Shown piece by piece: positions 9,088 to 9,406 of a DNA stretch of 22,130 nt. Numbering within the stretch: the stretch's first letter is position 1; every line of letters begins with the position of its first letter. The DNA comes from a virus, in IMG/VR virus record IMGVR_UViG_3300037264_008088; one strand, written 5' to 3'. The translations under genes and the position numbers were made by a program. The notes under the pieces are model-generated. The model was given only the letters and a program-made list of their open reading frames with translations, had not been told where the DNA came from and made no database searches.

Positions 9088-9163
9088 GCACTACCATTGT
9101 GCTACCATCTCGCCGCGACCCCGGGGTCGGGGGCATGGCGAGATGGGCGGAATTTGAATCCGC
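9088..9163 (-). tRNA. tRNA-like module with permuted topology: T-arm + 3' acceptor + GCCA, 24-nt spacer, then 5' acceptor + U8A9 + D-arm
   Basis: Minus strand: GCGGA-TTCAAAT-TCCGC (9163..9147), CCATCTC (9146..9140), G, CCA (9138..9136), spacer TGCCCCCGACCCCGGGGTCGCGGC (9135..9112, contains the 14-nt palindrome CGACCCCGGGGTCG), then GAGATGG (9111..9105, exact complement of CCATCTC), TA, GCAC-AATGGTA-GTGC (9102..9088). No complementary 5' acceptor exists upstream of the T-arm, so a conventional tRNA cannot be drawn. Confidence 0.4.
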
Positions 9164-9271
9164 ACCTCGGCTTGGAACTCCCTGCCGCCTTTGTTTACCC
9201 TGATGCCGCGGTAACGGCTTCAGCTTGACAGCAAAACTTGAGTCTCATCCTCATTCTCACCCGACCGCGCG

Positions 9272-9406
9272 GTGCCTCTACCATTTTGGGCTACCCGCCC
9301 ACCACGACCCCTTGGAAGGGGGCAGGGTGGGCGGGGCAGGGTTCGAACCTGCACTGTGGCGCACGACCGATCAACTTGAACTTGGCTGACTCTTGCTTTG
9401 GTGCGC
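9272..9406 (-). tRNA. Second tRNA-like module with the same permuted topology, preceded by an anticodon-arm-like hairpin with a 36-nt insert
   Basis: Minus strand: GCGCAC (9406..9401) - 36 nt - GTGCGC (9364..9359), ACAGT, GCAGG-TTCGAAC-CCTGC (9352..9336), CCCGCCC (9335..9329), A, CCC, spacer TGCCCCCTTCCAAGGGGTCGTGGT (9324..9301), then GGGCGGG (9300..9294, exact complement), TA, GCCC-AAAATGGTAG-AGGC. The D-arm and ACAGT variable loop closely match the window-edge tRNA at 3..81. Confidence 0.35.

Follow-up and report, generated by a model that had tools for sequence, protein, structure and literature searches.

A candidate two-domain tRNA-mimic RNA beside DUF7873 genes of phages, Nostocales and Polyangiaceae

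What kind of RNA carries the parts of a tRNA in an order from which no ordinary tRNA can be drawn? The question is raised by a 22,130-nucleotide (nt) stretch of viral DNA, IMG/VR record IMGVR_UViG_3300037264_008088, which we refer to at its full length as the window. Its minus strand from 9388 to 9063 holds two tRNA-like modules, i and ii, just downstream of a gene for a DUF7873 protein. Each module runs in the order T-arm, 7-nt 3′ acceptor strand, 24-nt spacer, complementary 5′ acceptor strand, U8-A9 and D-arm. We put a probability of roughly 0.6 on the reading that the modules belong to an undescribed two-domain tRNA-mimic RNA with closed acceptors, which has DUF7873 as its dedicated protein partner and for which we infer a function below. 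It apparently represents a relative, not described before, of the bacterial Y RNAs that mimic tRNAs, and the pair of gene and RNA recurs in more than a hundred loci of phages, cyanobacteria and myxobacteria.

A first-pass annotation of the window had described two modules with a T-arm, acceptor strands, spacers that begin with UGCCCCC and hold a palindrome, U8-A9 and a D-arm, together with a CCA encoded in module ii, and all of these are present in the sequence (Table 1). It had also held that no ordinary tRNA can be drawn from either module, and we find the same with gene finders. The sole ARAGORN call in the window is a tRNA-Leu at 3..81, with neither module and no transfer-messenger RNA (tmRNA) called; in 8700..9800, the Rfam tRNA model has no match even at E ≤ 10, and the Rfam tmRNA families have none at the same cutoff. 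In 24 related loci, ARAGORN likewise does not call the modules as tRNAs. That the modules are real tRNA relatives is borne out, the D-arm and variable loop of module i being similar to those of the tRNA-Leu. The tRNA-Leu itself (minus strand, anticodon GAG) has a 5-nt variable loop (ACAGU), a large D-loop and no long variable arm; a long variable arm is normal for bacterial tRNA-Leu.

Each domain has its T-arm and U8-A9, a D-arm that carries G18-G19, and an acceptor stem of 7 bp that a loop would close in the primary transcript; on the side of the anticodon arm of a tRNA, the domain is closed by pairing of its own flanks. The sequence type of the U8-A9 and D-arm region of module i, UAGCCCAA..GG.AGAGGC, recurs in phage, Nostoc and Polyangiaceae loci. 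Upstream of module i, an intron-like 6-bp stem enclosing 36 nt had been proposed, formed by GCGCAC (9406..9401) and GUGCGC (9364..9359). The stem exists in the sequence but is not conserved, and relatives prefer the pairing of 9369..9360 with 9271..9262.

The architecture is best judged by covariation. We built a covariance model (R1) of the T-arm and closed acceptor on 14 modules from the seven closest loci. In the window it matches only the two modules, at 83.5 bits for module i and 96.3 bits for module ii, and a fragment of the tRNA-Leu. Beyond the window it identifies 74 distinct modules directly downstream of DUF7873 genes on the same strand. In these modules the seven acceptor pairs are all standard (518 of 518 cells), with four to five pair types at each position, and the T-stem and the seven acceptor pairs taken together are paired in 99.9% of cells. 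The 74-module alignment is fitted to the covariance model, but fitting alone cannot yield seven pairs that stay unbroken in 74 cases with freely varying sequence.

The helices formed by the flanks are supported in each module separately. For module i, a MAFFT alignment of 13 relatives has 91.7% of cells paired and 16 pairs changed on both sides, which none of 500 shuffles reaches, and the values collapse when the 3′ partners are slid by 1–3 columns. The weakest helix is the outer part of the anticodon-side helix, where the inner part is out of register in the MAFFT columns and the paired share therefore drops to 71% of cells; its five outer pairs all show double changes. In module ii, a perfect upstream complement to the 7 nt that lie at a constant distance past the 5′ acceptor strand exists in 9 of 12 relatives, against a mean of 2.6 and a maximum of 7 in shuffles, and these closing helices are of six kinds (CAGGGAG, CAGAAAG, UAGAGAG, CGCUCCU, CAAGGAU and GUGGCUC). 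Within the single sequence this helix is not significant with wide search windows and becomes significant with the 3′ strand at the conserved offset. The minimum free energy fold of module ii alone is the closed-acceptor cloverleaf (z = −4.2), comprising the closing helix CAGGGAG/CUUCCUG, a 4-bp helix GCCG/CGGU, the variable loop AGGU, the T-arm, the acceptor hairpin and the D-arm. An independent RNAalifold consensus of 12 Nostocales chromosomes has the same plan, with two modules each closed by its own flanks. The structure is kept by covariation. Among the alternatives that the first-pass annotation had listed, an unusual structured non-coding RNA is the one that holds.

The second line of evidence is the constant company of the DUF7873 gene. 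The DUF7873 protein has 333 homologues, all of them unnamed. Loci with DUF7873 homologues were taken from 24 viral contigs, ten closer contigs found by exact-protein look-ups, 80 metagenome loci, 34 loci from bacterial genomes and 90 deposited phage genomes. The bacterial loci include complete Nostoc, Anabaena and Cylindrospermum chromosomes and Polyangiaceae assemblies, and the deposited phages include Ralstonia phiRSL1, Klebsiella FBKp24, and Gordonia, Arthrobacter, Rhizobium, Vibrio, Prevotella and Pseudanabaena phages. In nearly all of the collected loci, the DUF7873 gene is succeeded by a gap free of genes, in which one or two modules lie on the same strand. We treated distinct loci with at least 450 nt of sequence downstream of DUF7873 as informative and counted modules strictly within 900 nt. 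At least one strict module is present in 95 of the 112 informative loci and at least two in 53, whereas elsewhere in the DUF7873 loci the background rate is 0.016 per kb, an enrichment of about 60-fold downstream of the gene. The modules are always on the strand of DUF7873 and start 12–540 nt after its stop codon. Loci that bear them include the cultured phages phiRSL1, FBKp24 and GodonK and the complete Nostoc, Anabaena and Cylindrospermum genomes, and the tight, strand-specific linkage extends over phages, Nostocales and Polyangiaceae.

No other gene of the window shares this pattern. When all window proteins were compared by tblastn with 150 DUF7873 loci, none besides DUF7873 recurred, and the remaining matches were isolated to single loci (an RmlD-like protein in L028, a 102-aa open reading frame (ORF) in L151, and the HNH and a 224-aa ORF in L019). 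A Pfam scan of 143 ORFs neighboring DUF7873 likewise returned no recurrent partner. In the Nostocales chromosomes of Nostoc, Anabaena and Cylindrospermum (L120–L138, at ∼5000..6150 of each locus), DUF7873 and the two-module RNA share a conserved synteny with FtsH, DUF1614 and an AI-2E transporter, and there the pair appears to belong to the cell itself and not to a prophage. In Klebsiella phage FBKp24 (L147), an annotated 'tRNA-OTHER, Sup-TTA' at 4012..4091 shares bases with both the T-arm and the 3′ acceptor strand of module 2; most likely the tRNA-like module has led to a mis-call. A blastn search of the region against phage DNA gave no match. The T4 stable RNAs rnaC and rnaD were considered as relatives and rejected, as the module covariance model matches only T-arm fragments in them, at 12 bits or less.

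The two modules are probably parts of one non-coding RNA of ∼380 nt, which would begin near 9390 and end with the terminator at 9005 (minus strand), is co-oriented with DUF7873 and is probably co-transcribed with it; 100 nt separate the end of the gene from the 5′ closing strand of module i (CAGCC, 9388). The locus had been described as a promoter-to-terminator unit. Its terminator-like hairpin with U6 is real, whereas a sigma-70 scan of the window found no promoter. The 9-bp stem of the hairpin shows compensatory changes, and in its 16-nt loop (9021..9036), whose length caused a simple scan to miss the terminator, the core AGCGGCGAUGCGA is invariant in seven relatives. The invariant loop core and covarying stem suggest from sequence that the terminator may be part of the functional RNA. 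The flanks of the modules also carry tandem chains of NARNNU hexamers, with 8 observed versus 0.4 in shuffles; Tandem Repeats Finder reports no repeat, although the period-6 hexamers are enriched in the direct count. Within a locus the motif changes in concert, appearing as CAAGUU, (C/G)AGACU, YAAGCU or CAGGYU, and in the Nostocales RNAalifold consensus the 5′ and 3′ tracts pair with each other.

Table 1. Positions of the RNA features and of selected genes in the window
Feature	Position	Strand	Description
Module i with closing helix	9229..9388	−	helix runs from CAGCC.. at 9388 to ..GCUG at 9229
Module i, 5′ hexamer tract	9373..9384	−	CAAGUU CAAGUU (NARNNU, period 6); conserved in 12/12 close relatives
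Module i, 'anticodon-side' long helix, 5′ strand	9360..9369	−	CGGUCGUGCG; partner 9271..9262
Module i, T-arm	9352..9336	−	GCAGG-UUCGAAC-CCUGC; pairs kept in 74 modules
Module i, acceptor hairpin overall	9294..9335	−	helix reaches 10 bp in the window copy
Module i, 3′ acceptor strand	9335..9329	−	CCCGCCC, then ACCC
Module i, 24-nt spacer	9324..9301	−	UGCCCCCUUCCAAGGGGUCGUGGU; starts UGCCCCC; palindrome CCCCUUCCAAGGGG
Module i, 5′ acceptor strand	9300..9294	−	GGGCGGG
Module i, U8-A9 (UA)	9293..9292	−	
Module i, D-arm	9291..9274	−	GCCCAAAAUGGUAGAGGC; GG in loop; D-stem kept in 13 relatives
Module i, 'anticodon-side' long helix, 3′ strand	9262..9271	−	CGCGCGGUCG
Module i, 3′ hexamer tract	9235..9258	−	GAGAAU GAGGAU GAGACU CAAGUU
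Module ii with closing helix	9063..9184	−	CAGGGAG (9184..9178) / CUUCCUG (9069..9063)
Module ii, T-arm	9163..9147	−	GCGGA-UUCAAAU-UCCGC; pairs kept in 74 modules
Module ii, acceptor hairpin overall	9105..9146	−	
Module ii, 3′ acceptor strand	9146..9140	−	CCAUCUC
Module ii, discriminator and encoded CCA	9139..9136	−	G-CCA
Module ii, 24-nt spacer	9135..9112	−	UGCCCCCGACCCCGGGGUCGCGGC; starts UGCCCCC; palindrome CCCCGGGG
Module ii, 5′ acceptor strand	9111..9105	−	GAGAUGG
Module ii, U8-A9 (UA)	9104..9103	−	
Module ii, D-arm	9102..9088	−	GCACAAUGGUAGUGC
Module ii, U8-A9 to inner helix	9083..9104	−	U8-A9, D-arm, G26, then CGGU pairing with GCCG (9171..9168)
Module ii, 3′-side single-stranded stretch	9070..9082	−	GAUAAAGUUGAAC; GAUAA nearly invariant in the close group, next three bases variable
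Module ii, 3′-side NARNNU hexamers	9069..9080	−	
Terminator-like hairpin	9005..9044	−	GC-rich stem GGGGCCCC / GGGGCCCC, conserved loop AGCGGCGAUGCGA, then U6
DUF7873 protein gene, 246 aa	9487..10227	−	Pfam PF25283, E 2.6e-70; immediately upstream of the RNA, same strand
RNA ligase	10641..11264	−	PF09414; ∼400 nt upstream of DUF7873
Major-vault-protein-like protein, 868 aa	13482..16088	−	major-vault-protein shoulder and vault repeat domains; 4 kb upstream
Cysteinyl-tRNA synthetase	20132..21622	−	

The acceptor ends of the modules bear marks that suggest processing. A purine occupies the position directly past the 3′ acceptor strand in 60 of 76 modules. The strand is followed by N-CCA in 22 of these 76 modules and by N-CC in 39, far above chance expectations of ∼1.6% and ∼6%, respectively, and the acceptor helix ends at exactly 7 bp in 46. 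The YrlA RNA of Mycobacterium smegmatis has a stem of 7 bp; RNase P cleaves this RNA, trimming and CCA addition follow, and its two halves stay base-paired (PMC4201824). By analogy, the frequent N-CCA and the exact 7-bp stems suggest processing by RNase P and by the enzyme that adds CCA, and since the M. smegmatis RNA, the sole YrlA with a 7-bp stem, is processed in this way, many DUF7873-linked RNAs may be processed likewise. Such processing is less sure for the window copy, in which the stems are 10 bp long.

On the reading we favor, the RNA and DUF7873 would form a ribonucleoprotein in which the protein may bind at the period-6 NARNNU tracts and the closing helices, and factors that recognize tRNAs would meet the tRNA-like elbows and the acceptor ends. 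RNase P would open the acceptor loops, and the 3′ ends would be trimmed and completed to CCA as in the M. smegmatis YrlA, giving a base-paired RNA of several pieces with tRNA-like ends. The particle might then help to maintain tRNAs or translation, serving RNA repair, or a conflict between phage and host over tRNAs, as scaffold or decoy.

Several observations weigh against this picture of a two-domain RNA with a dedicated partner. Module i folds weakly when taken as a single sequence (z −1.9), and the pairing register of its hexamer tracts is ambiguous. DUF7873 has no recognizable RNA-binding domain and no significant fold match, so that it is gene linkage alone that points to a ribonucleoprotein. 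The acceptor helices of the window reach 10 bp and the N-CC(A) is therefore paired, which would make them poorer RNase P substrates than most of their relatives. Repair enzymes are not conserved neighbors in the 150-locus tblastn comparison or the 143-ORF Pfam scan, and the Nostocales cassette lies among housekeeping genes, so a role in phage–host conflict is not general. Finally, one phage locus (L003) has closed-acceptor modules away from DUF7873, at 2154..2232, 8110..8186 and 8573..8652. These extra T-arm/D-arm modules fall outside the tRNAs called by ARAGORN, and modules of this type may be commoner in phage tRNA regions.

A repair context is seen only at occasional loci. The first-pass annotation had proposed a search for a tRNA-splicing endonuclease or RtcB. 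An RNA ligase lies upstream in the window and an RtcB directly after the RNA in L029, but neither is conserved at the other loci. A PolyA_pol/HD nucleotidyltransferase is found near the RNA in L026, and many loci are inside phage tRNA arrays.

The position of the modules could also mean that they are cis-acting, tRNA-like elements in the 3′ untranslated region of the DUF7873 mRNA, cut by RNase P or RNase Z to set and stabilize its 3′ end, the freed RNA being functionless. The models for this explanation are tRNA punctuation and MALAT1-mascRNA. It would account for the constant strand and the short distance past the DUF7873 stop codon, it agrees with the lack of a promoter in the window and with the lack of room for one in some loci (the RNA begins at +13 in L024, at +19 in L008 and ∼10–20 nt past the stop codon in L029 and L152), and 7-bp acceptors with N-CCA do resemble processing sites. 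We nevertheless consider it unlikely. A processing signal has no need of two modules, conserved closing helices, hexamer tracts, a GAUAA stretch and a terminator with an invariant loop; the sequence type of module i is kept from phages to cyanobacteria even though the protein is only ∼30–40% identical; and in FBKp24 a promoter is annotated between the gene and the RNA.

An ordinary Y RNA of the YrlA type, binding a Ro60/Rsr protein encoded elsewhere in the genome, is suggested by the Rfam results. YrlA (RF02553) is the only Rfam family that matches both modules at a low E-value, with a full-length match to module ii (26.0 bits, E 0.0048) and a partial match, limited to the core, to module i (24.1 bits, E 0.017). 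The topology equals that of the solved YrlA structure (bioRxiv 10.1101/312249), and some phages encode Ro60 together with Y RNAs (PMC4201824). However, the gathering score of the family is 69 bits, and it is reached neither in the window nor in 12 related loci. YrlA genes sit within 4 kb of rsr (PMC4201824), whereas no TROVE domain was found among the window ORFs of at least 330 aa, which leaves the RNA with no Ro60/Rsr gene within 9 kb on one side and nearly 13 kb on the other; the gene tables of ten related loci with DNA and of P0015 hold none either. Of the three features by which Chen et al. (2014) recognized YrlA RNAs, namely a tRNA-like domain, GNCGAAN0-1G near the 5′ end and a Ro60 gene within 4 kb on the same strand (PMC4201824), the DUF7873-linked RNA has the tRNA-like domain only. 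The Rsr-binding motif GNCGAAG has no match in 9000..9450, and by inspection there is no GNCGAANG there. The linkage, moreover, is to DUF7873, and we hold a standard YrlA to be very improbable here.

The first-pass annotation had itself likened the modules to circularly permuted tRNA genes. On that explanation the flanks would be cut and then sealed into a circle by the RNA ligase or RtcB, after which opening of the acceptor loop by RNase P and a 3′ nuclease would yield functional tRNAs. The order of 3′ half, spacer and 5′ half stands, as do 7-bp acceptors with the discriminator and CCA often encoded; in the window, an RNA ligase gene lies ∼400 nt upstream of DUF7873, and in L029 RtcB comes directly after the RNA; and past the D-arm of module ii, CGGUG-AUAAAGU looks like a 4–5 bp anticodon stem and a loop with U33 and R37. 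What finds no support is maturation into decoding tRNAs, as the modules have no conserved anticodon loop or anticodon. The would-be anticodon of module ii is AAA, AAC, AAG or AAU among close relatives, its matching 3′ strand lies upstream and is followed by the closing helix, and the joined loop would be at least 17 nt. In module i, the joined flanks form a variable helix of 9–10 bp with a loop of ∼30 nt. There is no 3-4-3 bulge-helix-bulge, the inner helix of module ii being flanked, by inspection, by a 9/3-nt internal loop and a 1-nt bulge. Acceptor stems of tRNAs carry identity elements, and those of the 74 modules vary freely. The ligases are not conserved neighbors, and the cassette is also found in Nostocales chromosomes that already have full tRNA sets. 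Permuted tRNA genes are on these grounds highly improbable.

A further suggestion had been that the RNAs are vault-RNA analogues working with the protein related to major vault protein (MVP), which is encoded 4 kb upstream on the same strand. Its gene is absent from all 150 other DUF7873 loci, within 8 kb of the one MVP relative, that of viral contig L145, there is no DUF7873 gene and no module, and the Rfam vault RNA family has no match in the window; the analogy is scarcely credible. Degenerate tRNA remnants, a head-to-tail tRNA dimer artifact or an inverted repeat of the REP (repetitive extragenic palindromic) type have a practically negligible chance of being right: dimeric tRNAs can indeed mimic a YrlA match (PMC4201824), and some R1 matches in phage tRNA arrays are of this kind, but here neither side yields a tRNA call, the two acceptor strands of a module pair with each other, only two module sites occur in the window by the covariance model, and the covariation across 74 modules and the linkage statistics refute all three.

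The DUF7873 protein gives few clues of its own. Its AlphaFold2 (AF2) model (predicted local distance difference test score, pLDDT, of 89) has a beta-alpha-beta-beta-alpha-beta core, a long beta hairpin and flanking helices. PHROGs, PADLOC and NCBIfam contain no match to the protein, nothing meaningful came from a profile search of PDB sequences, a literature search for 'DUF7873' found nothing, and Foldseek with the model against PDB and BFVD returned nothing at E ≤ 0.001. The best of the weak Foldseek matches are backbone subunits of the Cas7/Csm3 type (E ∼0.01, probability <0.2). Cas7/Csm3-type subunits bind RNA in 6-nt steps. The correspondence with the period-6 repeats of the DUF7873-linked RNA is a mere lead and may be a coincidence.

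The window as a whole looks like part of a large phage genome. Besides the tRNA, it encodes a cysteinyl-tRNA synthetase, an R2K ATP-grasp protein and an HNH endonuclease, and numerous further ORFs belong to no family. Upstream of the RNA on the same strand lie, in order, the 868-aa MVP-like protein, three unknown ORFs, the 207-aa RNA ligase and the 246-aa DUF7873 protein. The MVP-like protein has a single relative among the viral contigs, that of L145, with 47% identity. Together, the RNA ligase, the cysteinyl-tRNA synthetase and the tRNA suggest a phage with translation and RNA-repair functions of its own.

Closed-acceptor tRNA mimics have hitherto been tied to one protein, Ro60/Rsr, and their function is unclear. 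Should the two-domain RNA with its DUF7873 partner hold true, it would be a second widespread family with another dedicated partner, making this RNA design a general module of more than one ribonucleoprotein. It would also provide the first functional handle on DUF7873, a protein with no known fold relative, account for gene-free gaps of ∼250–750 nt in many phage genomes and for odd 'tRNA-OTHER' calls such as that of FBKp24, and add one more tRNA-related function to those carried by large phages. More tentatively, DUF7873 and the two-domain RNA might constitute an ancient, undescribed ribonucleoprotein family that large phages have in common with Nostocales and Polyangiaceae and that would parallel the Ro/Y RNA particle without depending on Ro60. 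On this more tentative reading, the tRNA-like ends might accept amino acids or might lure nucleases that target tRNAs, and repair enzymes. Tractable carriers are Klebsiella phage FBKp24, Ralstonia phage phiRSL1, Gordonia phage GodonK and cultured Nostoc, Anabaena and Cylindrospermum.

Other RNAs with tRNA-like parts resemble the DUF7873-linked RNA to different degrees. Burroughs and Aravind (2016) are said to have linked SPFH/Band-7 scaffolds to a tRNA-like RNA in repair systems, which would speak for the vault analogy. The mascRNA of MALAT1 is a single eukaryotic module with an open acceptor, in contrast to the closed acceptors and separate closing helices found here. Two-piece tmRNA has the permuted order, an acceptor that is first closed by a segment later excised and a CCA end on an RNA of two pieces, but the DUF7873-linked RNA has no tag reading frame or pseudoknots, and its D-stem is complete. 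The permuted tRNA genes of Cyanidioschyzon merolae and Thermofilum also place the 3′ half first and a spacer after the acceptor 3′ end, and their leader and trailer pair; these genes mature into decoding tRNAs through a bulge-helix-bulge cut and a circular intermediate, whereas the DUF7873-linked modules have neither a conserved anticodon loop nor a bulge-helix-bulge and reside in bacteria and phages.

YrlA RNAs, too, have been likened to circularly permuted tRNAs (bioRxiv 10.1101/312249). They and the DUF7873-linked RNA share the order flank, variable loop, T-arm, loop-closed acceptor, U8-A9, D-arm and flank, with the flanks paired; in YrlA the core folds as a tRNA-like L whose anticodon side is made from paired 5′ and 3′ parts. 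Both also neighbor their protein partner on the same strand, commonly with more than one RNA per locus (YrlA and YrlB), and both occur in phages. The DUF7873-linked RNA differs in having DUF7873 as its neighbor with no Ro60/Rsr nearby, in lacking GNCGAAN0-1G and scoring far under the Rfam threshold, and in carrying two full modules with a shared terminator in one transcript, acceptors that are mostly of exactly 7 bp with N-CCA encoded, and period-6 NARNNU tracts. The YrlA of M. smegmatis binds Rsr, and the stems of the window RNA, for which processing is predicted by analogy, reach 10 bp; with most DUF7873-linked modules, the M. smegmatis RNA shares a loop-closed acceptor stem of 7 bp.

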